A DNA stretch of 64,000 nucleotides, from positions 41,174-105,173 of the forward strand of contig JAGBDZ010000043.1 in the NCBI GenBank assembly GCA_017937215.1, read 5' to 3'. The notes below the pieces were generated by a model, which was not told where the DNA came from, searched no databases, and worked only from the letters and a program-made list of their open reading frames with translations. The DNA is from Akkermansia sp. (lineage in GTDB: Bacteria; Verrucomicrobiota; Verrucomicrobiia; Verrucomicrobiales; Akkermansiaceae). Below are positions 5,573-48,559 of this stretch, one piece after another. Both the position numbers and the translations under genes were made by a program. The first letter of the stretch is position 1; the number at the start of each line of letters is the position of its first letter.

Positions 5573-6271
5573 ATGGCAAAGCAGGGCGAGAAAAAGAAAG
5601 TGCGGGAGGCCGGGCTGAAGAAAGGCTCTGCCAGTCCCGGGGCATTAGCTGCGGCTGCGGTGTTCCTGCATCGTATTGAGCGTTTGCGAAAGAATTACAA
5701 ACCGGATTTAATGCCTCTGACCCCCTTGCAGGAAAGGCTGGTGGAGGAGATTGAGGAGGCTTTTGCCGGGGTACAGTGCCTGAACGAACCCTATGTGCTG
5801 ATTTGCGGAGAAGCGATGGATGACTACCTGAGCCAGGAAGTGCTGGATGTGCTGGCTGCCCGCGAGGAGAGGAATGACTGGCACGCCATCCCCGATGATT
5901 TGCTTTTTGCCTGCTCGATATCCTTGTGCTTCGTCGGGCCCGAGGCGTACCGTTTCCTGATTCCCCGTTTCATGATTGGTGCGCTGCGCGGCGTGGTGGA
6001 AATATACCCCGGTCTGAGTCCCAAAAGTGAGCTGGAGGAACACATCCGCCAAAAGAAGAGCCTCCTGAACGAAGCCCAGCAGCAGTGCCTTTCTGATTTC
6101 CTGAGCCTGCAGAGCGTGGATGAGGAAACCGGCGAGTTCTATGGTCGCAACCAGTTCCTGCCCTGGGAGCTGGATGAATACCGCGCCCGCTACGCGGATG
6201 AGCTGACACCCCGCGAATATGGCGCCTTGCTGATGCAGCGCTATGCCGATCGTGTAGGTCTTAAAGAATGA
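5573..6271 (+). CDS. Hypothetical protein
   Basis: ORF 5522-6271; ATG at 5573 (MAKQGEKKK) preferred over the GTG at 5522; no motif recognised with confidence. Confidence 0.55.
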   Translation: MAKQGEKKKVREAGLKKGSASPGALAAAAVFLHRIERLRKNYKPDLMPLTPLQERLVEEIEEAFAGVQCLNEPYVLICGEAMDDYLSQEVLDVLAAREERNDWHAIPDDLLFACSISLCFVGPEAYRFLIPRFMIGALRGVVEIYPGLSPKSELEEHIRQKKSLLNEAQQQCLSDFLSLQSVDEETGEFYGRNQFLPWELDEYRARYADELTPREYGALLMQRYADRVGLKE

Positions 6272-9604: not shown

Positions 9605-10549
9605 TCAGGGTGTCTTCTGCATCTCATCCAATTTCTGCTGCGCTCTGGCGTGGCCTTTTTCGGCGGCTTTTTTCAGCCATTTGGTGGCTTTGTCCTTGTT
9701 AGATTTGCAGCCGCGGCCATCCAGCAGCATGCAGCCCAGGCGGTAGCATGCCTCGGTGTTGTCCATGCGGGCGGCGCTCCAGTACCAGTCAAATGCCTTG
9801 TTCGCATCGGCCTGCACACCCAACCCGAGCTCGTAGCAGCGCCCCAGCTGCACCATGGCCGGTGCACTCAGGGCATCTGCTGCTTTCAACAGCAGTTGCA
9901 GGGCCTCCTCCTGTTTCCGCTCGGTGCCCACGCCGTGCAGCTTGCAGAACCCCAGCCAGAAGGTGGCATTCGGGTGGTGGGTGGCGGCGGCTTTTTCGAA
10001 AAGGATGGCGGCCTCGGCAAAGTTCTGCGCGCAGCCCACGCCTTGCAACCGGCAGAAGCCCAGACTGCACATGGCCTCAATATGCCCGGCGGCGGCAGAG
10101 CGCTCCAGCCAGGCGAGTCCCAGCTGCTCGCTTTTCTGCACGCCTTCGCCGCTGAGGTGAGCCATGCCCAGGCGGTACATGCCTTCCAGGTTCCCCTGGT
10201 GGGCCGCTTTGACCCACCAGCGGCAGGCCTCTGTATCGTTGCGCTCCACACCCTGGCCTTTTTTGTAGCACTCTGCCAGCAGGCACTGCGCATCGGCATG
10301 CCCCTGGTCGGCGGCTTTGCGCACCCAGTACAGACCCTTGTCTGTGGATTTTGTCACGCCGCTGCCGGTCAGGTAGCAACGCGCCAGCAGAAGCTGCGCG
10401 GCGGCATCGCCGGCCTCGGCGGCCTGTCGACTGTCTGCTGCCAGAGTGGCAATCTCCACGGCTTCTTCCACATCGGCTTCCGTCCATTCTTCCTGGGCGG
10501 GGAGCATGGGGCTGAACAGAAGCAGGACAATCAGGGTGCGGCGTATCAT
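9605..10549 (-). CDS. Sel1-repeat (SLR/TPR-like) protein, secreted
   Basis: Repeated ~36-aa units of the form GxGVxxxxxxAxxWxxKAAxQGxxxAxxxLGxxY; signal peptide. Confidence 0.85.
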   Translation of the reverse strand: MIRRTLIVLLLFSPMLPAQEEWTEADVEEAVEIATLAADSRQAAEAGDAAAQLLLARCYLTGSGVTKSTDKGLYWVRKAADQGHADAQCLLAECYKKGQGVERNDTEACRWWVKAAHQGNLEGMYRLGMAHLSGEGVQKSEQLGLAWLERSAAAGHIEAMCSLGFCRLQGVGCAQNFAEAAILFEKAAATHHPNATFWLGFCKLHGVGTERKQEEALQLLLKAADALSAPAMVQLGRCYELGLGVQADANKAFDWYWSAARMDNTEACYRLGCMLLDGRGCKSNKDKATKWLKKAAEKGHARAQQKLDEMQKTP

Positions 10550-39762: not shown

Positions 39763-39803
39763 GGCGGCGGGTTCCGACCAACGGAACCCGCCGCTTCATC
39801 TTT
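39763..39803 (+). terminator. Rho-independent terminator after groEL
   Basis: GGCGGCGGGTTCCG-ACCAA-CGGAACCCGCCGC followed by TTCATCTTT. Confidence 0.7.
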
Positions 39804-39825
39804 GCCGCCAGACGAAGATTTCATT

Positions 39826-39859
39826 GCTTCCAACAGAAGCGATTTCATGCGGCCCCGCC
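39826..39859 (+). repeat. Imperfect direct repeat A (GCTTCCAACAGAAGCGATTTCATGCGGCCCCGCC) upstream of Abi_2 gene
   Basis: Related copy at 41270-41304; the 23-nt core GCTTCCAAC.GAAGCGATTT.AT differs at 2 positions and contains a GCTTC/GAAGC hairpin. Confidence 0.6.
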
Positions 39860-39971
39860 AATCTGCCGTATGAGTGGTGATAACGGCTTGTGCCGCAGAT
39901 AATAGGCAATTCTCAGGTCTTTGTTTTCACGCGAAATCGTGTACCCACCTCAATTTTTTTAGATTTTCGAG

Positions 39972-40000
39972 TTGACTTTGGCGTGGTAACAATGTTTAAT
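39972..40000 (+). promoter_or_regulatory. Sigma70-type promoter TTGACT-17-TTTAAT for the Abi_2 gene
   Basis: Hexamers at 39972-39977 and 39995-40000. Confidence 0.4.
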
Positions 40001-40069
40001 GACCTTAGCAAGGTGATTTCCCGCAAGGGCGCCAAAAAGGCTTGGCGTTAAATATCACGATTTTATCTT

Positions 40070-40110
40070 CGACCCACCCTGCCAGTTCAGGGTGGGTCGT
40101 TGACTTTTCT
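40070..40110 (+). promoter_or_regulatory. Perfect 11-bp stem hairpin plus T-rich tract immediately before the Abi_2 start codon (attenuator-like)
   Basis: CGACCCACCCT-GCCAGTTC-AGGGTGGGTCG then TTGACTTTTCT; ATG at 40114. Confidence 0.4.
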
Positions 40111-40113
40111 ACG

Positions 40114-41184
40114 ATGCCCGTTTATCCTGCACTAAAACCGTTTAAAACATTCCATCAACAAGCTCAACAACTTGTACGGCGTGGAATGTCGAGTTCTTGC
40201 GGCTTGTCGCAGAGTGACTTGGTGCAGCAAATTGAGCAGGATTTAACATACATCAACTACTATCGTCTGTCTGCATATTGGTATGCGTATCGTAAAAAAC
40301 GGCAATCTGGAGAATTGACAGATGATTTTAAGGCGAAAACATATTGGGAGACGGTTCGAGGCTTATACATGTTCGACCGTCGGTTGCGGGGGATGATTTT
40401 TGATGCGATATCAAGAATTGAGATTGCTTTACGCACCCAGATTGCCCATATCTGGGCAGAAGATACAAAACAGTCTGCGCCTCAAAGCGACACAAATTGC
40501 TACAATTATTCGTATACTGTATCAAAGATAGACAAAAAGACCAATCAGTCGAAACCCAGCGATTATGCAACCTTATTGTCGAAAGTAGATTCATACTACA
40601 AGAAAATCAATGATGATGTCGCCAGACATCACAAGAAGGTGTATGGAATTAAGAAAGCTGCGGATTTGCCAGTATGGGTATTTGTTGAGTATTCTACTTT
40701 CGGGAATCTGGCATCGCTGTTATCTGGTGGATTGCCTCAGGCGACCGTGGACACTATAGCAAAACACTTCGGCTTCTCGGATCCTTCATTTTTTGTGTCC
40801 TGTGTCAATTTACTGAACGATGTGCGCAATACTTGTGCGCATCAGGGGCGTATCTGGAACAGATACTGGTTGACAGCAAAGGGCGCTCATTATCTCAAAT
40901 CTCCCAATAAGAGTTTTCCCGCATGGCTGATGGAATATTGTGCTGCGTCGCAGGAATGGAAAGTGAATGCCCAGATGTCTCTCGGAACGTTAACTGCCAA
41001 TAATTACCAGACATCTTCTGTTCTGACCGTATGCAATATTTTATTGCGCACCGTAGCGCCTCAAAGTCTGTGGAAAAACAGACTTCTTGCTCTGATGGCA
41101 AATCCGGATAATCCCTTACCTGATATATATCGTTATATCGGGTTTACCAATTCCCGCTGGCATGAGCATCCTCTGTGGAAATAG
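40114..41184 (+). CDS. Abi_2-family (AbiD/AbiF-like) abortive infection protein
   Basis: YINYYRLSAYWY...YMFDRRLRGMIFDAISRIEIALRTQIAH...NDVRNTCAHQGRIWN motifs typical of Pfam Abi_2; ATG at 40114 preferred to the TTG at 40042. Confidence 0.85.
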   Translation: MPVYPALKPFKTFHQQAQQLVRRGMSSSCGLSQSDLVQQIEQDLTYINYYRLSAYWYAYRKKRQSGELTDDFKAKTYWETVRGLYMFDRRLRGMIFDAISRIEIALRTQIAHIWAEDTKQSAPQSDTNCYNYSYTVSKIDKKTNQSKPSDYATLLSKVDSYYKKINDDVARHHKKVYGIKKAADLPVWVFVEYSTFGNLASLLSGGLPQATVDTIAKHFGFSDPSFFVSCVNLLNDVRNTCAHQGRIWNRYWLTAKGAHYLKSPNKSFPAWLMEYCAASQEWKVNAQMSLGTLTANNYQTSSVLTVCNILLRTVAPQSLWKNRLLALMANPDNPLPDIYRYIGFTNSRWHEHPLWK

Positions 41185-41269
41185 CTCGTTCGCCCTCTTT
41201 TTACAGTTCGCAAGAGGTTCTTATTCAAACGTCTACCACTTCATCTTAGCCTGGAGATAAAGATGAATA

Positions 41270-41304
41270 GCTTCCAACGGAAGCGATTTTATATGGCTCG
41301 GCCT
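41270..41304 (+). repeat. Imperfect direct repeat B (GCTTCCAACGGAAGCGATTTTATATGGCTCGGCC) downstream of Abi_2 gene
   Basis: See repeat A at 39826-39859. Confidence 0.6.
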
Positions 41305-41429
41305 ATTTTTATAAGCGTGCCAGTTGTGCTGCCGTAAGGAGCCTGATAATTTTACCACAGGCAAAATTTAAATCTTAAAAAACGAAGTAGATCATTATAA
41401 TCTTCTTCGCGAAAAGGTGGTAAAACGCC

Positions 41430-42062
41430 ATGCAAAAAACAGAAAATAAGATGTATAGCTCTATTAGAGGTAAGGGTGCAGGGTGTGTTATTACCAACAG
41501 TGACTTTTACCATCTGGCAGCAAGGGGGACGATAAACCGTTGTTTGACCTCTTTGCGTGAGCGTGGAATTATTCGTTCCCTCATAGTCGGCATTTACGAT
41601 TATCCCATCTACAGCGAGCTTTTGCAGGAGCTACTGGCCCCTGATATCGACTTGGTAGCTCAGGCGATTGCCCGGAAGAATCAATGGCATATTCAGATTA
41701 CGGGAGACGCGGCGTTGAATTACCTTGGCCTGAGCACGCAGGTCCCGGGCCGCTATGTGTACCTGAGTGATGCGCAGAGCAGGGAATACCAGATCATGAA
41801 CCGCACCCTCGAATTCAAACGCGCACCGCTCAAGCAGACAAAATTTCAAAGCCGTCAGACCGAGATCATCACCCAGGCCCTTCTCGCTCTGGGCGAAGCC
41901 AACACCAATGAGACCACACTTGCTAAAATTGCAGCCTATATCAAAGACAAGGAGAGACCTCGCATTCTGAAAGATAGTCGCTATGCTCCCGCCTGGATTG
42001 GTGAGTTGCTCAGAAAAATTATTACCGAAGTTACCGTTATAAAGAATGAGACTGCCACCTGA
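41430..42062 (+). CDS. DUF6088-family protein (AbiEi-like winged-helix antitoxin/regulator), no cognate toxin gene adjacent
   Basis: ITNSDFYHL...LRERGIIRSLIVGIYDYP...ITGDAALNYLGLSTQVPGRYVYLSD pattern typical of DUF6088/AbiEi_3-4. Confidence 0.75.
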   Translation: MQKTENKMYSSIRGKGAGCVITNSDFYHLAARGTINRCLTSLRERGIIRSLIVGIYDYPIYSELLQELLAPDIDLVAQAIARKNQWHIQITGDAALNYLGLSTQVPGRYVYLSDAQSREYQIMNRTLEFKRAPLKQTKFQSRQTEIITQALLALGEANTNETTLAKIAAYIKDKERPRILKDSRYAPAWIGELLRKIITEVTVIKNETAT

Positions 42063-42290
42063 ATAGAAATGGCGCATCCACTGTAGTAGATGCGCCACAT
42101 TGCGGGGCTTTCGGTTGCTGCTGAATTATCTTCAGCGCATCGGCCAGTAGTTGCGCTACCTGTTCATCGATGGTGAAATTAACAGTAGCGGCACAGGAGT
42201 ATAGCAGGGGAACCGCTCTCTTCCTCTCCCATGTAAACTGTAGTTCAGCTTTTCATGATTGCCGTTGCTGCGCATGTAGAAAAATTAGAT

Positions 42291-44093
42291 CTAATCTTTT
42301 CTGCATATGCATGATATAGCATCTTGCAACCCCGATTCTTTTCTGTTATAGATTCTCCATAATTTTTTCAGGATGTCTTTATAGTAGTTGCTGTCACTTT
42401 TTAGATAGTTGGAGGGAATAAGCGTGTCTTGATTTCTTTCTGCTAAATCGAGAGCATTATCAAAACATGCTCCGAGGACATCCTCCCCAATGATGCTGAA
42501 TATTTTGAAAAATAGATTTTTCTCATCAGACATATTGTTGCACACAATATTCGTCATATCTCCCGTTTGTTTGAGGATGCGTTTGAGTTCGTCGGTGTTA
42601 TTCAAAAGACCCGCTATGGTATCATATGAAAAAACACCGTGTTCTAACTTGCATAGAAAAGATATACAGGCAAGTTGGAAAGTTTTTCCATTACGTATCA
42701 TGGGCAATGTTGTACGTTCATCGTAGCCTGCATTCTTAATATCATGTTTTACGAACAGGTCGTAATAGTGAGCAATTCGTAAGGTGTCGGCAATTATACC
42801 CGCTTGGGCACTGTCGCCGAAGAGGGAGTAATAGTATTCATCTTGGTACATTTTTGATGACTGACTCCGTGCTGTACCTGGCATTTGCAGTACTGTTGCG
42901 AATCCGAGCTTTCCTACCTGTTCGAGTGTAGCATAATGGTATGGCTCAGAATATTGCTTGGGAACGCGGTCACCCTTTTTCGTTATATAGTATACGTGTT
43001 TTGCATAGAGCTTCTCTTTCAACCTATATTGTTCTTTGGTGTTCGATTTAAGGTCAGCCTTTTTAATGGTTTTCTGGGAATTTGATGCTTCGGCAATTTG
43101 AAGAGTAAACTCATCTTTATGTGATCGTGATTCTCCTTTGGTTTTAACTACTTTACATTGTAAATAAAAATCTCTTTCAATATCCAGATGTCCGAGTTTG
43201 TGTGTTGTTTGTCCTCCGTTTACAATGGAAAAATTGTGTAGTTTCAGAGTTCTTCCATCAAGTTGATAATTTTCACATACAATTATGATGCCGTTGTTTT
43301 TATACCAGAAATTATCCGGTTCCTTTCTTACTGTTTTTGAAATTCCTTCATCAACAGTTTTTTGCCGTATGTAGTACCGCAGATTCATACCAAGAAGACC
43401 GTTTCTTCTCCTGTTTTGCAAATCTTGCAATGATTGTGCGGATATATTTACAATGATGGAATCTTCGTAGCTAAGAAAATTGTCCGTTTTGTCAATCGTT
43501 AACTTGTCGTAATCTACAAATAGTTTTCCGTTGTCAATGGATTCGATTTGAGCTTCAATGTCAGCGCAAAATGCCATTTCGACATCAAAAAGATTAAATA
43601 ATGAAGCGTTGGCTTTTTCTATCTTATTTTGTTCTCGTTTTGTTTTGGGTGCATATGATGTGCAGAAGAAAATCCTGATACATCCCGTATCTTCCATTTG
43701 ACTTTTTGCATTTCTATATGCGGTCAGAACTTTTTCATTGTAACCTTGTGTTTTGTATCTGTCGATGTTCTTGACGGTCTCCGCAATCTTGTATAATTCA
43801 CCAGCAACGTCTTCCCCTGTCAATTTAGTGTTTTCATAGTACTTGCTTTGAACGATGATCATATCGTTACCTTCACTATTAGGGTCATTGAAAATAGCGT
43901 CTATTCCTCCATCATTTGCTCCATCCGTATGATATTCCAAGCACGTATCTGGGTCGAAACGGATCCCATCGCTAAAGAAGAAGTATTTTATACAGAGCAT
44001 TGTGAAAATATGACAATCTTGCATATCGCGTAAGATTGCATATTCGCTTTTCAATGTATTAATTCGTTCGGATATAAAATTTTGATTTGTCAT
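42291..44093 (-). CDS. AIPR-family abortive infection phage resistance protein
   Basis: 600 aa. N-terminus ...DGANDGGIDAIFNDPNSEGNDMIIVQSKY... and central ...IVNGGQTT... are characteristic of Pfam AIPR. This is the most AT-rich gene in the window. Confidence 0.85.
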   Translation of the reverse strand: MTNQNFISERINTLKSEYAILRDMQDCHIFTMLCIKYFFFSDGIRFDPDTCLEYHTDGANDGGIDAIFNDPNSEGNDMIIVQSKYYENTKLTGEDVAGELYKIAETVKNIDRYKTQGYNEKVLTAYRNAKSQMEDTGCIRIFFCTSYAPKTKREQNKIEKANASLFNLFDVEMAFCADIEAQIESIDNGKLFVDYDKLTIDKTDNFLSYEDSIIVNISAQSLQDLQNRRRNGLLGMNLRYYIRQKTVDEGISKTVRKEPDNFWYKNNGIIIVCENYQLDGRTLKLHNFSIVNGGQTTHKLGHLDIERDFYLQCKVVKTKGESRSHKDEFTLQIAEASNSQKTIKKADLKSNTKEQYRLKEKLYAKHVYYITKKGDRVPKQYSEPYHYATLEQVGKLGFATVLQMPGTARSQSSKMYQDEYYYSLFGDSAQAGIIADTLRIAHYYDLFVKHDIKNAGYDERTTLPMIRNGKTFQLACISFLCKLEHGVFSYDTIAGLLNNTDELKRILKQTGDMTNIVCNNMSDEKNLFFKIFSIIGEDVLGACFDNALDLAERNQDTLIPSNYLKSDSNYYKDILKKLWRIYNRKESGLQDAISCICRKD

Positions 44094-44112
44094 ACTGCCC
44101 GTAGTTTGCCCT

Positions 44113-44140
44113 ATGCTAACACTTGTGCATTATAAGTCAA
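44113..44140 (-). promoter_or_regulatory. Sigma70-type promoter TTGACT-16-TAGCAT for the AIPR gene
   Basis: Minus-strand hexamers at 44135-44140 and 44113-44118, about 20 nt upstream of the ATG. Confidence 0.4.
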
Positions 44141-44297
44141 GTAAATTGTGTTGAGTTTGGATTGAACGGAAATGACGATGAGTCATTGATCTCTTCTCAT
44201 GTTAATACGCCGACCTAGAACATAACTTTGAATTGTAATGACAAAATATGTTTTTGCTTAAGTGATTTCACGTGTTTGTAAAATTGAGGATTATAGG

Positions 44298-44552
44298 TCA
44301 TATTGATATTGTCATCTCCTCGATATGCGACTGCAATTCAGTCAGCAGGCCGGCATAGGCGAGGCGGTGGAAGGTGCCGTGGTGTTCTTGTATTTCGTGG
44401 GCTGAGAGATGGTGGTGGGTGGCTTGGAAGGTGGTGATGAGGGCGGTCTGTTGTTTCCGGGCGGTTTCCTGGGTTGGGAAGGGGCCTTGGCAATCGATGG
44501 AGAGGTGACCTTCGGCATCGATGGTGGCGTAGTGGAGGATATAGAGGGGCAT
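44298..44552 (-). CDS. Hypothetical 84-aa protein, 3 nt downstream of and co-oriented with the DpnI-like gene
   Basis: ORF MPLYILHYATIDAEGHLSIDCQGPF...; composition like the DpnI-like gene; no recognisable domain. Confidence 0.45.
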   Translation of the reverse strand: MPLYILHYATIDAEGHLSIDCQGPFPTQETARKQQTALITTFQATHHHLSAHEIQEHHGTFHRLAYAGLLTELQSHIEEMTISI

Positions 44553-44555
44553 AGG

Positions 44556-45324
44556 TCAGTTGGTTTTACGGTAGACGCCGGGGGTAAGGAATTCGATGAG
44601 TCCTTTATCGCGGAGCATCTGGAGTTGCTGGCGGATTTTGGCTTCGACGTTGTTGTTGCGGGGATGGCGGGCTTTCAGTTGGTCAACAAAGGAGTACATC
44701 TGCTCCAGGGTGAAGGTGGAGCTTAGTTTTTCGGTGCATTGGAGGACATCGAACAGCCAGCCGCGGCTTTCGATGCTCCTGGATTGCAGGGCGTAGACCT
44801 TGTTATATTTCCGGCAGACTTCATCTTTATCCAGCACCTCGCCATTGCGGATGATGGGGATTTTGGCAGAGTCCGGGACTTTACCCAGCAGAATGTTGCA
44901 GCCCTCCCACCCCGCGCGCGGCGGTCTCTTTCAGCTGCTTGCGTTTCTGGATGATATCCGGGATGAAAAAGCACCTGGGAACGATGATGAGGTTGTTCAC
45001 CTGGTAGCGGTCGTAGTGCAGGAAGAAGAAGCTGGGGTTATCCAGCGAGGTGATGCGCTGAATCATGGTGCGGTATACGCCATCGACGACGCTGCTCATG
45101 AATCGGGCGGTGGTGGATTTTTTGCTCTTCAATTCATACTGGGCGCGGCAGTTCTGACAGACGTAGTCTTTGACCGGGGCGTTGGGTTCGGCGGTCTGGA
45201 TGGATTCGGCGCCGCAGATAGGGCAGTACATGTTGCGGGCGAGCCAGTCTTCGGTGAGACGCCGGGCAATCTGGGCGGGGCTTTTGTAGCCTTGTATCAG
45301 GGCGGTGTTGAACGTTAAATTCAT
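44556..45324 (-). pseudogene. DpnI-family (Dam-replacing protein family) methyl-directed restriction endonuclease, disrupted by a frameshift in a (CG)4 tract
   Basis: N-terminal part MNLTFNTALIQGYKSPAQIARRLTEDWLARNMYCPICG...KRKQLKETAAR (frame A, stop at 44881). It continues in another frame as AGWEGCNILLGKVPDSAKIPIIRNGEVLDKDEV...winged-helix C-terminus to 44556. Combined length is about 257 aa, close to the DpnI length as I recall it (about 250 aa). The shift lies in CGCGCGCG at 44913-44920. Confidence 0.75.
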
Positions 45325-45415
45325 AGGCGGGGGAGGCGAGTCTGCTGTCATTCTAGCAGAATGAAGACTGCTTGCAAGTTCGGAAGTAAGATTGGCTGCG
45401 AAAAAACGAGGGCGA

Positions 45416-45537
45416 TTCAGTCCCGAAATCACGGTGCATTTAATCGGGACTTCCGTCTTCGCCCTGCGGGCTACGCCGAGACAAGAAAGTCCCGTGCTTC
45501 GACAAAGTGCCTCCCCCGCAAATTCCCATTTGTCGGG
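45416..45537 (-). repeat. Nested-hairpin interspersed repeat, copy 3 (reverse orientation, ~33-nt insertion, one outer arm missing)
   Basis: TTCAGTCCCGAAATCACGGTGCATTTAATCGGGACT...insert...AAAGTCCCGTGCTTCGACAAAGTGCCTCCCCCGCAAATTCCCATTTG is the reverse complement of the copy-1 layout. Confidence 0.85.
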
Positions 45538-45590
45538 GCTAATTATTCCAATGCGTTTATTTTGAAGCGTTTTTCGTTCAAGCCTCGCAT

Positions 45591-47324
45591 TCATTTACAA
45601 GGCTGCTGTATTATGCTTTTGACGTTCAGAACACCCGCGGCCATTTCGTTGGGGTATGCATCAGGCCTGTCTTTCAAATCTGATCTTCTTATGAGCCCGA
45701 GCGAATCTTCTGGTGTTTCAGGGTAGGCAGCTGGTAACACAATAGACTGATTCCCTTGCTCTTTTTGCCTGGTAATTTCCTTAAACCTTGCAGCTTCGTA
45801 AGGCTTATACTCCCATGCTTCTATACCTGCGGGAACCGTGTGGTATAGAGCAATGGCCAGCATGAGAAAACTTAATACTTTCAGTTGAATCTGCGGGATG
45901 TTACAGTTCCAGTACAGGTAGGCAATCGCTCCTATAAGGGACAGGGTGGCAGGAGCAAAGCTCATGGGCGTGGGAATGCAGCTGTAGAGGTAAGCGCATG
46001 CGCCAAATAATGAAACACAAAGGGTTCCGCAGATAACGCTTATCGCAGTTCGAGATGCCTGTTTGTTAATGAAACAGAGAAGAGTACAGATTAGAAGTGC
46101 TGCCATGACATATGCGCTACACGTCACGTACCGTTCCAACAGGTATGGAAGAAAATGAACATGTTGCCACAATGGGATGCCTTCCAAAACGATTACGGAA
46201 CTGCCGCCTTTCAGTAGATTCACCTGCTCCCAGTTCAGGTTGTCGATGAAAAGGTTTATTTGTTCCTGACTCATCCCTGAAATGTCGAGCGCTCTGGCTT
46301 GTGCATCCATGATGGTTCGGGATTTCAGAGCTGGTGCTGCAAACAGTGCCGTGGCTCCCAGTACTGCACCGATACTGCCCAGCCAACAGAAGGGCGGTAT
46401 GGGAAGCCGGTTGAGCATTCTGTATAGAAACCATGCAATCAACAGTGTGAGTACGATGAGAGATAGTGATTCGCCGCCCCAACACACATATATCCCCAGA
46501 ATGAAAAGAACGAGGCTCCTGCCAATATCCGTTCTGGATACATACGGATCTGTCAAGGACCATCTCCTGGGATTATAAAATGATAGGAAGAGGACTGCCA
46601 GCAAACTTGGAAAAAGGTAATTCATGCTGGCGGCAAAACAATAGAAAATCCTCCATGCTTTCATTTGTGTAGATAGTATCAGAATGGAGAGGCACAAAAC
46701 GTAGAAAACGCGCCCTTTTCCGGAACTGAGCCGTTGTGTTTTTGATGAAACCATCCTGAAAAAAAGCGCAGGAGCAAAAACAACCAATAAAGGGACCAGT
46801 ATGAAAACCTGCCATCGATTCTGAGAAATTCCCAAGAGGTGAGCTACGAGCTCACCGCTTCGAGATACCCATTTCAGGTATGATTGCCACCACATTTCTA
46901 TTCTCCCTCCAATTCCGCAATCATGAATAAATGCGTAATCATCCCCTTTGAGCCAGGCGCAGTACAGGAGCAGAGCCAGTCCTGCATAGCATGCAACGCC
47001 AATGCCAAGTAGTTTTATCTGGTCAAGTCGTTCCGTCCGTGTTGCTTCGCCTTGCTGTGGCGTGGCGGTGACTTGAGAATGGGTCTGGTATTTATAGGCG
47101 ATGACTCCTATGGCGTATGCTATCGCAAAACCTATCAGATAAAATGGTATGCGTGGTAATAGAAGACCTCCTTCTCTCATCCAGACCCATATGCTCACCC
47201 CTACGCAAAGCACCAGAAACCACATTAATGCGGGGTATGATAGCACAATCCTGAGTATGTTGCGAAGAAAGGTAAGCTTCATGGAGTGGTGCAAATCCAT
47301 GCCCTGCATGGTACAGCATTGCAA
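45591..47324 (-). CDS. Hypothetical polytopic membrane protein (~12+ TM; GT-C / DUF6056-like glycosyltransferase fold suspected)
   Basis: 577-aa ORF, many hydrophobic segments, AT-richer than the core genome. The family assignment is a weak recollection of a WxSRSGE-type loop motif. Start codon uncertain. Confidence 0.6.
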   Translation of the reverse strand: MQCCTMQGMDLHHSMKLTFLRNILRIVLSYPALMWFLVLCVGVSIWVWMREGGLLLPRIPFYLIGFAIAYAIGVIAYKYQTHSQVTATPQQGEATRTERLDQIKLLGIGVACYAGLALLLYCAWLKGDDYAFIHDCGIGGRIEMWWQSYLKWVSRSGELVAHLLGISQNRWQVFILVPLLVVFAPALFFRMVSSKTQRLSSGKGRVFYVLCLSILILSTQMKAWRIFYCFAASMNYLFPSLLAVLFLSFYNPRRWSLTDPYVSRTDIGRSLVLFILGIYVCWGGESLSLIVLTLLIAWFLYRMLNRLPIPPFCWLGSIGAVLGATALFAAPALKSRTIMDAQARALDISGMSQEQINLFIDNLNWEQVNLLKGGSSVIVLEGIPLWQHVHFLPYLLERYVTCSAYVMAALLICTLLCFINKQASRTAISVICGTLCVSLFGACAYLYSCIPTPMSFAPATLSLIGAIAYLYWNCNIPQIQLKVLSFLMLAIALYHTVPAGIEAWEYKPYEAARFKEITRQKEQGNQSIVLPAAYPETPEDSLGLIRRSDLKDRPDAYPNEMAAGVLNVKSIIQQPCK

Positions 47325-47503
47325 ATGCTTTATTCTTTCATCGCTGTCTGTAAAAGTTTTAGCGTTTTTTTGTGAAAAACTGTTCCCTGTGGAGACTTAT
47401 TATCGCTTTTAATGTAAAGACGGTATAGTTTGGTGTGCAGGTAAATAACAGTTGCATTGGGCTATTAAGCTTGACGCAGCATTTGCAATGCTTAACCACC
47501 ACT

Positions 47504-48499
47504 ATGAATACAAGACTGATAAGCGAACTAATGAAGGGGTGCAATCTGCATGGGGCGGATGCAGCTCGCCTGGTCCTCGAGTGTATAGAAAGTTTAGGGG
47601 AACGAGCAGCGGGTGCACCGAGGGATAGATTAATGAGACTGGTGCGGCGGGTCATATCGGCTGGTGTGGCTGTCATCCTGGCAGAGGAGCGGACAGAATG
47701 CTTTGAAAAGGCTGCATGGGAGAGTGTGGAAGCGCGCTCAGGACGACGAGCAACAACAACACGAGACCTGCGTTATTATGTGCGACGGATGTTGCGGGTG
47801 GAAGGTGTGGCTCATCTTCCGCTGCGAGGCATGACAACATCACAGTGCCGGATTATTCTACAGAAAGCATTTGGCAACAGTGTTCATAGTTACCGTAAGG
47901 GACGAGTAATTCTTCATAGTATTTTTGCTTATGGAATAAAGCAGGAGTGGTGCGATACAAATCCTGTGTCCAGAATAGATAATCCAATGGTGCAGGAAAG
48001 AAGTATTGCACCGTTGAGCAATATGGAAGTGCAGGAGTTGAAGAAAACGGCAGAGGAACGCCGCTTCAGAGACATGCGTTTTTCATTGAGCTTGTTGTTG
48101 TACAGCGGTGTGAGACCGGCAGAGGTGGAACGAATATCGCCGGAAGATGTTTGCTGGGAAGAGAGGCAGGTTATCATCCGCTCTCAAAACAGTAAGACCG
48201 GAGGCGGAAGAGTTGTGCCTTTGCGCGTGTTGCCGGGCATGCGCCGGCAGGATTGCAGCGTGCCGCCGAACTGGCAGAATCGTTGGTTGTTGTTAAGAAG
48301 AGCCGCAGGTTTTCGTCATTGGGTGCCTGATGTGTGTCGACATACTTTTGCAACGTATCATGCTGCTTATTTTCGGAATTTGCCGGAATTGCAGCTGGAA
48401 ATGGGGCACCGGGATGTATCGCTGTTGCGTAGCCGGTATATAGCACCGACTCTACAGAAAACGGCGGCTGAATTCTGGAAACCGGTATTGAGAAAATGA
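47504..48499 (+). CDS. Tyrosine site-specific recombinase / integrase
   Basis: GVRPAEVERI (Arg I), CRHTFATY (His-x-x-Arg), GHRDVSLLRSRYI (His...Tyr nucleophile); ATG at 47504. Confidence 0.85.
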   Translation: MNTRLISELMKGCNLHGADAARLVLECIESLGERAAGAPRDRLMRLVRRVISAGVAVILAEERTECFEKAAWESVEARSGRRATTTRDLRYYVRRMLRVEGVAHLPLRGMTTSQCRIILQKAFGNSVHSYRKGRVILHSIFAYGIKQEWCDTNPVSRIDNPMVQERSIAPLSNMEVQELKKTAEERRFRDMRFSLSLLLYSGVRPAEVERISPEDVCWEERQVIIRSQNSKTGGGRVVPLRVLPGMRRQDCSVPPNWQNRWLLLRRAAGFRHWVPDVCRHTFATYHAAYFRNLPELQLEMGHRDVSLLRSRYIAPTLQKTAAEFWKPVLRK

Positions 48500-48500
48500 A

Positions 48501-48534
48501 CCCGGGCTTGCAGTGGTGGTGCTGCAAGCCCGGG
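48501..48534. terminator. 13-bp stem hairpin between convergent integrase and 3D-domain genes
   Basis: CCCGGGCTTGCAG-TGGTGGTG-CTGCAAGCCCGGG; T-rich trailer on the minus strand. Confidence 0.55.
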
Positions 48535-48559
48535 TAGAAAAAACAAACAGTTGGGGAAA

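Follow-up and report, generated by a model that had tools for sequence, protein, structure and literature searches.

The 64,000-nucleotide window analysed here, taken from contig JAGBDZ010000043.1, belongs to an Akkermansia species that is represented by genomes assembled from animal-gut metagenomes, and it contains, between groEL and a gene for a 3D-domain protein, an AT-rich interval (39805-48540) that carries genes related to phage defence. This interval, called the island below, holds genes for an Abi_2/AbiD protein, an AbiEi-like regulator, an AIPR/AbiU protein and a protein of 84 amino acids (aa), followed by a DpnI pseudogene and by genes for a 572-aa membrane protein and a tyrosine recombinase. 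An initial annotation of the same DNA had described an AT-rich interval between groEL and the 3D-domain gene, and all its coordinates hold; the computed GC content is 0.458 in the interval vs 0.591 for the remaining window, with every other 8.7-kb stretch at 0.572 or above. The fall in GC starts directly past the intrinsic terminator hairpin of groEL (39763-39795, plus strand; a 14-bp stem followed by a T-rich tail), which marks the left edge of the variable region, and stops at a bidirectional terminator hairpin with a perfect 14-bp stem (48500-48535), which lies between the convergent integrase and 3D-domain genes and marks the right edge. About 40 related loci (L-numbered below) were found via contigs encoding identical or related proteins and were annotated with one local tblastn panel. 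The match to these relatives stops at about 39852 and restarts at 48491, and the right-hand hairpin lies within sequence common to strains lacking the last two genes of the island. Profile searches confirmed the identity of the 3D-domain gene.

The modules of the island differ from one another in composition, as had been proposed, both in GC and in GC at third codon positions (GC3). The AIPR gene is the most AT-rich (GC 0.37, GC3 0.37), followed by Abi_2 (0.44 and 0.45), the membrane protein, identified below as a glycosyltransferase (0.47 and 0.49), AbiEi (0.49 and 0.56) and the integrase (0.51 and 0.49). The 84-aa open reading frame (ORF; 0.56 and 0.69) and DpnI (0.53-0.57 and 0.69-0.78) come closest to the host, which is represented in the flanks by groEL (0.64 and 0.88) and the 3D-domain gene (0.64 and 0.85). 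Rfam and tRNA searches of the island returned nothing, with no tRNA inside or adjoining the interval, and a promoter scan gave 16 sites vs 14.4 expected from shuffles, which is the chance level.

Two genes of the island encode putative single-gene abortive-infection proteins, in agreement with the initial assignments. The first (40114-41184, plus strand) is an Abi_2/AbiD-type protein of the HEPN type, matching PF07751 (E 9.5e-42; 143.8 bits vs a curated cut-off of 25.6) and the PADLOC AbiD model (4.4e-43), and it has two HEPN Rx4-6H motifs of the Rx4H form, RTQIAH at residue 107 and RNTCAH at residue 238. The second is an AIPR/AbiU-like protein (42291-44093, minus strand) recognised by PF10592 (E 4e-30; 106 bits vs a cut-off of 25, covering only profile positions 4-205 of 308) and by PADLOC AbiU over residues 4-456 (E 4.3e-32); among plasmids, the closest relatives are AIPR genes of Enterococcus, which share 34% identity with it. 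Abi_2 is bracketed by two copies of an imperfect direct repeat of about 75 nt, R1 (39791-39866, plus strand) and R2 (41236-41310, plus strand), which are about 78% identical and each hold a GCTTC-N5-GAAGC hairpin, the one in R2 (41270-41284) being terminator-like. The repeat has two matches in the window vs 0.01 expected; R1 is also found 3' of groEL in L023-25 and L028-29, and R2 only in the clone to which the window belongs.

Between these two genes lies an AbiEi-like antitoxin/regulator (41430-42062, plus strand) that aligns over its full length with the AbiEi model of PADLOC (7.8e-55) and also matches DUF6088 (E 2.7e-32, 112 bits). The initial annotation had described it as lacking a toxin, and this was confirmed: a search for AbiEii (PF08843) found nothing between 42063 and 42290, and tblastn with the AbiEii of L028 gave no credible match in the whole window. 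L028 and L029 have complete pairs at this locus, with whose AbiEi it shares 86% identity, and in the sister strains L028, L029 and L026 the AbiEii gene overlaps the AbiEi stop codon by 4 nt. The nucleotide match to L028 spans AbiEi as far as 42022, skips the AbiEii gene and a 255-aa gene, and restarts in an 85-nt piece (42126-42210, equivalent to L028 7568-7652). Since the sister strains hold AbiEi, AbiEii and the 255-aa gene at this place and homology breaks inside the 3' end of AbiEi, the toxin-less gene is the remnant of such a complete pair and, with its toxin missing, not part of a working AbiE system. The 255-aa gene of L028 (6660-7427), located 3' of AbiEii, resembles HEPN_Apea only weakly (E 0.003), is not recognised by PADLOC, and could represent a third member of the AbiE locus there.

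The DpnI-like gene (44556-45324, minus strand) was correctly identified in the initial annotation, but it is frameshifted into two ORFs and is a pseudogene. The interval measures 769 nt, which is not a multiple of three, and is divided between ORFs in different frames, one of 147 aa (44881-45324) with the catalytic PD-(D/E)XK domain (PF06044, E 2.6e-52) and one of 93 aa (44556-44837) with the C-terminal winged-helix domain DpnI_C (PF17726, E 4.7e-32); the D...ELK motif is retained. Two nucleotides are missing from the GC tract ACCGCCGCGCGCG^GGGTGG (about 44910-44921), where the conserved ARAGW motif is encoded, and this leads to a premature TAA at 44881-44883. The identical lesion occurs in the independent assemblies L002 and L003, which rules out a sequencing error as its source. 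The intact DpnI of L021 is a full-length homologue of the pneumococcal R.DpnI (4ESJ; E 2e-75, end-to-end alignment). Moreover, another lineage, represented by L014 (about 9625-9640) and L016 (about 5620-5640), has gained 2 nt through duplication of a GC at the same ARAGW codon, and in L014 the 5' end of the gene is missing as well. These paired frameshifts at one codon could be due to a mutational hotspot or to repeated selection against DpnI.

In strains of the L001 type, DpnI is cut after about 105 codons and followed by genes for DpnII, a D12 methylase and an N6_N4 methylase. L026 has no DpnI on its contig, which ends inside DpnII; DpnI is therefore truncated or not present on the contig in the strains with DpnII and methylases, a comparison involving incomplete contigs and predicted specificities. 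In the window, GATC is found 48 times vs 227 expected under a Markov model (ratio 0.21), making it the second most avoided tetranucleotide after CTAG, and it occurs at about one fifth to one third of expectation in all six related loci checked (L001, L012, L017, L021, L026, and L028). No Dam or DpnII homologue is encoded in the window, and the depletion is consistent with a long history of GATC-directed restriction. Unannotated genes of 192, 325 and 443 aa accompany the DpnII, D12 and N6_N4 genes in the corresponding segments (L001 13117-19238; L026 8283-10618), together with an identical 3D protein.

The 84-aa ORF (44298-44552, minus strand) has no match in Pfam, PADLOC, NCBIfam, PHROGs or PDB sequences, and its dN/dS of 0.14-0.44 across Akkermansia indicates that it is a real, conserved gene under purifying selection. 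It has 18 close homologues, and an HMMER search of 1.84 billion representatives recovered an unannotated family of 33 clusters, almost all of 64-92 aa and essentially all of 42-144 aa, in which Cys21 and Glu72 are invariant, His7 and Gln74 nearly so, and His76 well conserved. AlphaFold2 predicted a beta-beta-alpha-beta-beta-beta topology with a pLDDT of 93. A Foldseek search of this model against the PDB gave no match at E <= 0.001, the best being YfjZ/YeeU (E 0.035, TM-score about 0.3), and a viral structure library returned only uncharacterised small phage proteins (TM-scores of 0.55-0.78). A relationship with CbeA/YeeU or YeeT, considered because of the weak Foldseek match and of a RadC neighbour in L044, was rejected, given hhalign probabilities of 0.1-0.2%. 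No member of the family was found in the viral contigs and phage genomes searched, nor in JGI metagenomes.

The genomic context of this family is more informative, as it adjoins DpnI in two phyla (Verrucomicrobiota and Bacteroidota) and other defence nucleases besides. In Akkermansia the 84-aa gene lies directly downstream of DpnI, at distances between a 4-nt overlap and a 3-nt gap; in Alistipes (L041-43) the family gene is downstream of DpnI with a 1-nt overlap, in another organism (L045) it is likewise downstream, and in L040 it is upstream. A library protein of 144 aa (P0166) joins the first 68 or so residues of DpnI to an 84-aa-family domain, a fusion that probably arose by internal deletion and gives a further sign that the two genes adjoin elsewhere. 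In Bacteroidales (L035 and L036) the family gene comes after AbiLi-AbiLii (RloB), with HsdR of a type I system beside it. The gene before it in L037 encodes a 239-aa protein weakly matched by PADLOC REase_II, and in L044 it is preceded by RadC on an element with RepL.

On the other side of DpnI, a 2.93-kb module (45557-48490) composed of the membrane protein and the integrase is present or absent as a unit, with 13 nt (ATGTACGTACCAA) in its place in L001, L007, L008, and L009, which encode an identical 3D protein. Neither a target-site duplication nor a direct repeat was found at 45556/45557 or 48490/48491. The membrane protein, reported as 577 aa in the initial annotation and of 572 aa when read from the ATG at 47309, is predicted to be a polytopic GtrC-like glycosyltransferase (45591-47309, minus strand), with a match to PF19528 over profile positions 25-438 of 442 (E 4.3e-27; 95.4 bits vs a cut-off of 27). 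This family, formerly DUF6056 and now GT_STM0557_N, is named after a Salmonella GtrC glucosyltransferase. No relative of the protein was found in the viral contigs and phage genomes searched. The gene is intact in L006 and L010; a disruption in L010, considered because of odd gene calls, was dismissed as a contig-end artefact. The integrase (47504-48499, plus strand; PF00589, E 3.9e-9) is a phage-type tyrosine recombinase related to integrases of Akkermansia temperate phages, its best phage match being that of Akkermansia phage Chambord (31% identity, 96% coverage, E 2e-43). The module is a separate insertion or deletion on the far side of DpnI. Both the 84-aa and the 577-aa ORFs had initially been left unassigned and proposed as the best candidates for an undescribed defence function; of the two, only the former, conserved, linked to defence nucleases and without a library match, is truly unassigned, and for it the proposal is partly right.

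Comparison of the related loci revealed two slots of variable content on either side of the 84-aa/DpnI pair. In L012-13, L015, L017-20, and L034 the order is groEL, the 84-aa gene, an intact DpnI (256-258 aa) and housekeeping genes, the slot between groEL and the 84-aa gene being empty. In the window, L002, L021, L022, and L032 the same slot is filled by Abi_2, AbiEi and AIPR; in L023 and L024 by Abi_2, AbiEi, a 107-aa gene and, with truncation of the 84-aa gene, another AIPR allele (40% identical); in L028 and L029 by Abi_2, AbiEi, AbiEii and the 255-aa gene; and in L026 by an AAA_14/DUF4143 gene with AbiEi and AbiEii, with the two methylases and DpnII farther on. L031 (6323-8575) and L033 (6453-8705) carry there a gene for a 750-aa Mrr_cat-nSTAND3 protein corresponding to the PADLOC candidate system PDC-S73 (E 1e-108), and L030 an HNH gene with genes of no known kind. 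The slot between DpnI and the 3D-domain gene is occupied by the glycosyltransferase and integrase in the window, L002, L003, L006, and L010, by Sel1 and a 201-aa gene in L001, L007, L008, and L031, and by a 199-aa gene and others in L021 and L023. At least seven distinct contents were thus found in the first slot and at least three in the second, and the defence genes represented across strains comprise AbiD, AbiEi/AbiEii, AbiU/AIPR, a methyl-directed type II restriction endonuclease, DpnII restriction-modification, PDC-S73 (Mrr-STAND) and HNH. The two Mrr_cat-nSTAND3 loci belong to other Akkermansia species.

The nearest relative of the window is equally uneven in its resemblance, with a nucleotide identity that ranges from 59% to 99% between modules. 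Compared with L021, identity is 59% in Abi_2, 92% in AbiEi, 97-99% in 42063-44297 including AIPR, 77% in the 84-aa gene and 80% in DpnI. As the AIPR segment is nearly identical while DpnI and the 84-aa gene are far less so, the AIPR cassette (42020-44297, which includes a hairpin at 42069-42098 and the conserved 85-nt piece) was exchanged recently between lineages with long-diverged resident genes. Besides, each module is found without the others in some strain. The successive insertions into one hotspot that had been proposed from the window are therefore supported both by the differing gene sets at one place and by the mosaic identity, and, instead of the same content being conserved in all relatives, contents differ and GC deviates. 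One part of that proposal was not sustained, namely that the DpnI/84-aa block is one more insertion: because the order groEL, 84-aa gene and DpnI is shared by several Akkermansia lineages and the GC3 of the pair is the closest to the host, this host-GC operon is an old resident beside groEL, and AT-rich foreign cassettes have been swapped into the slot between the two.

Altogether, we consider that the interval is a chromosomal phage-defence hotspot between groEL and the 3D-domain gene, made of independent modules and not of one system, with a probability of roughly 85%. An ancestral restriction operon of DpnI and the 84-aa gene is flanked by two exchange slots, and cassettes would be exchanged via homologous recombination in the conserved flanks, since the steps in identity are sharp and att sites are lacking. 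Among the modules of the window, Abi_2, AIPR and perhaps the glycosyltransferase are likely to be working, and DpnI and AbiEi are relics. Judging from their families, Abi_2 (a HEPN-type RNase) and AIPR would each act as a stand-alone abortive-infection effector, and the orphan AbiEi would at most serve in repression or in protection from incoming toxins of the AbiEii type. The GtrC-like enzyme, which may have arrived with the phage-type integrase in the manner of lysogenic-conversion genes, would change a surface glycan and block phage adsorption as the gtr genes of prophages do. The 84-aa protein, in turn, would assist or modulate the nuclease with which it is co-translated, whether of the DpnI type or another defence nuclease.

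Several points weigh against this interpretation. The comparison sequences are mostly metagenome contigs or metagenome-assembled genomes, and some taxonomic labels are doubtful. All the proposed mechanisms depend on family membership, and the exchange mechanism is a deduction, with no att sites or target duplications at any junction. Within the island, the GtrC-like protein is not accompanied by GtrA or GtrB, which leaves its substrate supply unaccounted for; the 2.93-kb module holds the glycosyltransferase and the integrase, with neither a gtrA flippase nor a gtrB bactoprenol glucosyltransferase. Additionally, the interpretation does not account for the 75-nt repeats around Abi_2. With respect to labels, L023-25 (P0025, labelled Oscillospiraceae) have an Akkermansia-type groEL with 98-99% identity, and L038 (labelled Faecousia) has an Akkermansia-type DpnI. 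Inter-phylum transfer was considered for these contigs and set aside, as the labels are probably binning errors given the Akkermansia-type groEL or DpnI.

Other explanations for the arrangement of the island were weighed against the same comparisons. The genes of the interval, or the pairs AbiEi and AIPR or Abi_2 and AbiEi, could form one new multi-gene defence system, as suggested in the initial annotation by the unusual pairings; the genes are adjacent, the series Abi_2, AbiEi and AIPR recurs in the five loci listed above, and PADLOC has no system with this gene set. However, AbiEi occurs with AbiEii and without AIPR in L028 and L026, Abi_2 is absent from L026, L023 carries the 40%-identical AIPR allele, AIPR is convergent with AbiEi and so does not share an operon with it, and the identity mosaic points to separate module histories, so that a single system appears very improbable. 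Even less credence can be given to the whole interval being one integrative mobile element brought by the tyrosine recombinase. The DpnI/84-aa core has a host-like GC3 and is syntenic with groEL in lineages without the integrase, which itself travels only with the glycosyltransferase as a 2.9-kb insertion or deletion; the outer junctions have no direct repeats and no tRNA is near, despite the integrase at one edge and the fact that the entire interval is AT-richer than the host. An integron or an att-bounded element was likewise discarded, as there are no junction repeats and the only long repeat flanks Abi_2 in two copies.

The preferred reading of DpnI as a relic also has to be compared with a phase-variable switch, or a bypass in translation, that would keep DpnI in use. 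Such a switch would agree with the independent frameshifts of two lineages, -2 nt in the window but +2 nt in L014 and L016, which affect the same few codons in a tract rich in GC, and a +1 shift on GGG-G would restore the frame. This tract, (CG)4 followed by G3-4, is nevertheless short and does not resemble a typical contingency repeat. In addition, the off allele is present in all three assemblies of the clone with no on variant of this allele seen, the missing 5' end in L014 looks like decay, and no slow codon or stimulator occurs at the frameshift site, making continued use of DpnI improbable. Regarding the 84-aa protein, a role as an obligatory antitoxin or immunity protein shielding the cell from DpnI would agree with the tight coupling of the two genes, with the retention of an intact 84-aa gene where DpnI is broken (the window, L014 and L016) and with the faint resemblance of its fold to the YfjZ/YeeU antitoxins. 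Against such a role, DpnI is intact where the 84-aa gene is shortened to 15-26 codons (L023, L024, L038, and L039), the Neisseria DpnI homologue has no 84-aa-type neighbour, profile comparison with CbeA/YeeU and YeeT gave a probability below 1%, and the TM-scores to PDB structures were low, and we regard this role as unlikely. Since each gene stays intact where the other is broken and the Neisseria DpnI does without such a neighbour, DpnI and the 84-aa gene do not appear to be obligatory for each other. A more novel reading, which we would put at rather less than even, is that the 84-aa protein founds an undescribed beta-beta-alpha-beta-beta-beta family (His7, Cys21, Glu72, Gln74, His76) acting as a portable accessory or modulator of defence nucleases and as a positional counterpart of DpnD.

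Defence islands at hotspots flanked by core genes are described in Pseudomonas, E. coli and Vibrio. The Akkermansia locus resembles them in its fixed housekeeping flanks, its strain-variable content of almost exclusively defence genes, its foreign composition and its mosaic identity, and differs in its host, in the groEL and 3D-domain flanks and in the old resident restriction operon in the middle of the hotspot; a literature search found no description of such a hotspot for Akkermansia. The DpnI part of the locus can be compared with two known arrangements. The Pfam name "Dam-replacing family" recalls the alternation of dam and a dam-replacing gene in Neisseria, whose DpnI locus differs from the present one in having no small gene. 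In the pneumococcal Dpn locus, dpnC, which encodes DpnI, is followed by dpnD, whose role is unexplained, an arrangement that alternates with the DpnII cassette dpnM-dpnA-dpnB (PMC4471560, PMC4120201, PMC3573125). The similarity to this Streptococcus pneumoniae locus includes the full-length R.DpnI homologue with a small gene next to it, as dpnD after dpnC, the presence of DpnII with D12 and N6_N4 methylases in the same interval of other Akkermansia strains, and the five-fold depletion of GATC. In contrast to the pneumococcal exchange, the DpnII genes of L001 are added beside a truncated DpnI and not cleanly exchanged for it.

The remaining modules also have known counterparts. AbiE is a type IV toxin-antitoxin defence composed of the antitoxin/regulator AbiEi and the nucleotidyltransferase toxin AbiEii; the gene of the window agrees with it in the end-to-end match and in its closeness to the AbiEi of complete pairs, and differs in the loss of the toxin. 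The lactococcal AbiD/AbiF (Abi_2) and AbiU/AIPR proteins are likewise stand-alone genes with strong profile matches to those of the island, which differ in their verrucomicrobial host and in the partial Pfam match of AIPR, and are known here from sequence. Modules of gtr (GtrC) O-antigen glycosyltransferases adjoin int/att in serotype-converting Salmonella and Shigella phages, and the module described here is similar in having a GtrC-family enzyme beside a phage-type integrase in a small strain-variable segment, but has neither gtrA/gtrB, other prophage genes nor att repeats.

The island itself is a known type of defence hotspot and not a new system, and what is new is the 84-aa family, the repeated inactivation of DpnI at a single codon and the GATC-centred dynamics of DpnI and DpnII in Akkermansia. 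These results map a defence hotspot in a gut genus that is of interest for therapy and about whose phages little is known. Moreover, the presence of DpnI or DpnII at one locus, the GATC depletion and the repeated loss of DpnI suggest that the GATC-methylation conflict of pneumococci and neisseriae also takes place in a distant gut phylum, and the 84-aa family provides a defined candidate for the small, still unexplained gene that accompanies DpnI in such systems.

Some smaller features of the island may be regulatory. A strong 12-bp hairpin with a T-rich tail (40070-40099) is located 15 nt 5' of the Abi_2 start codon and may insulate this gene from groEL read-through. The divergent intergenic region between the glycosyltransferase and the integrase (47315-47492) contains the palindrome AGCATT-N3-AATGCT in two identical copies (47315-47329 and 47478-47492), one immediately 5' of each of the two start codons, and the pair looks like a shared operator or a 5'-UTR (untranslated region) hairpin. 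An inverton at this place was rejected, as a single orientation was seen in all five contigs (the window, L002, L003, L006, and L010) and the arms are short 6-3-6 palindromes. Finally, a non-coding block of 141 nt 5' of DpnI (45416-45556), for which Rfam gave no match, is 98.6% identical in L001, L007, and L008, where it abuts the 3D-domain gene; it is conserved among strains with unlike neighbouring genes and may be a promoter of DpnI or another regulatory element.

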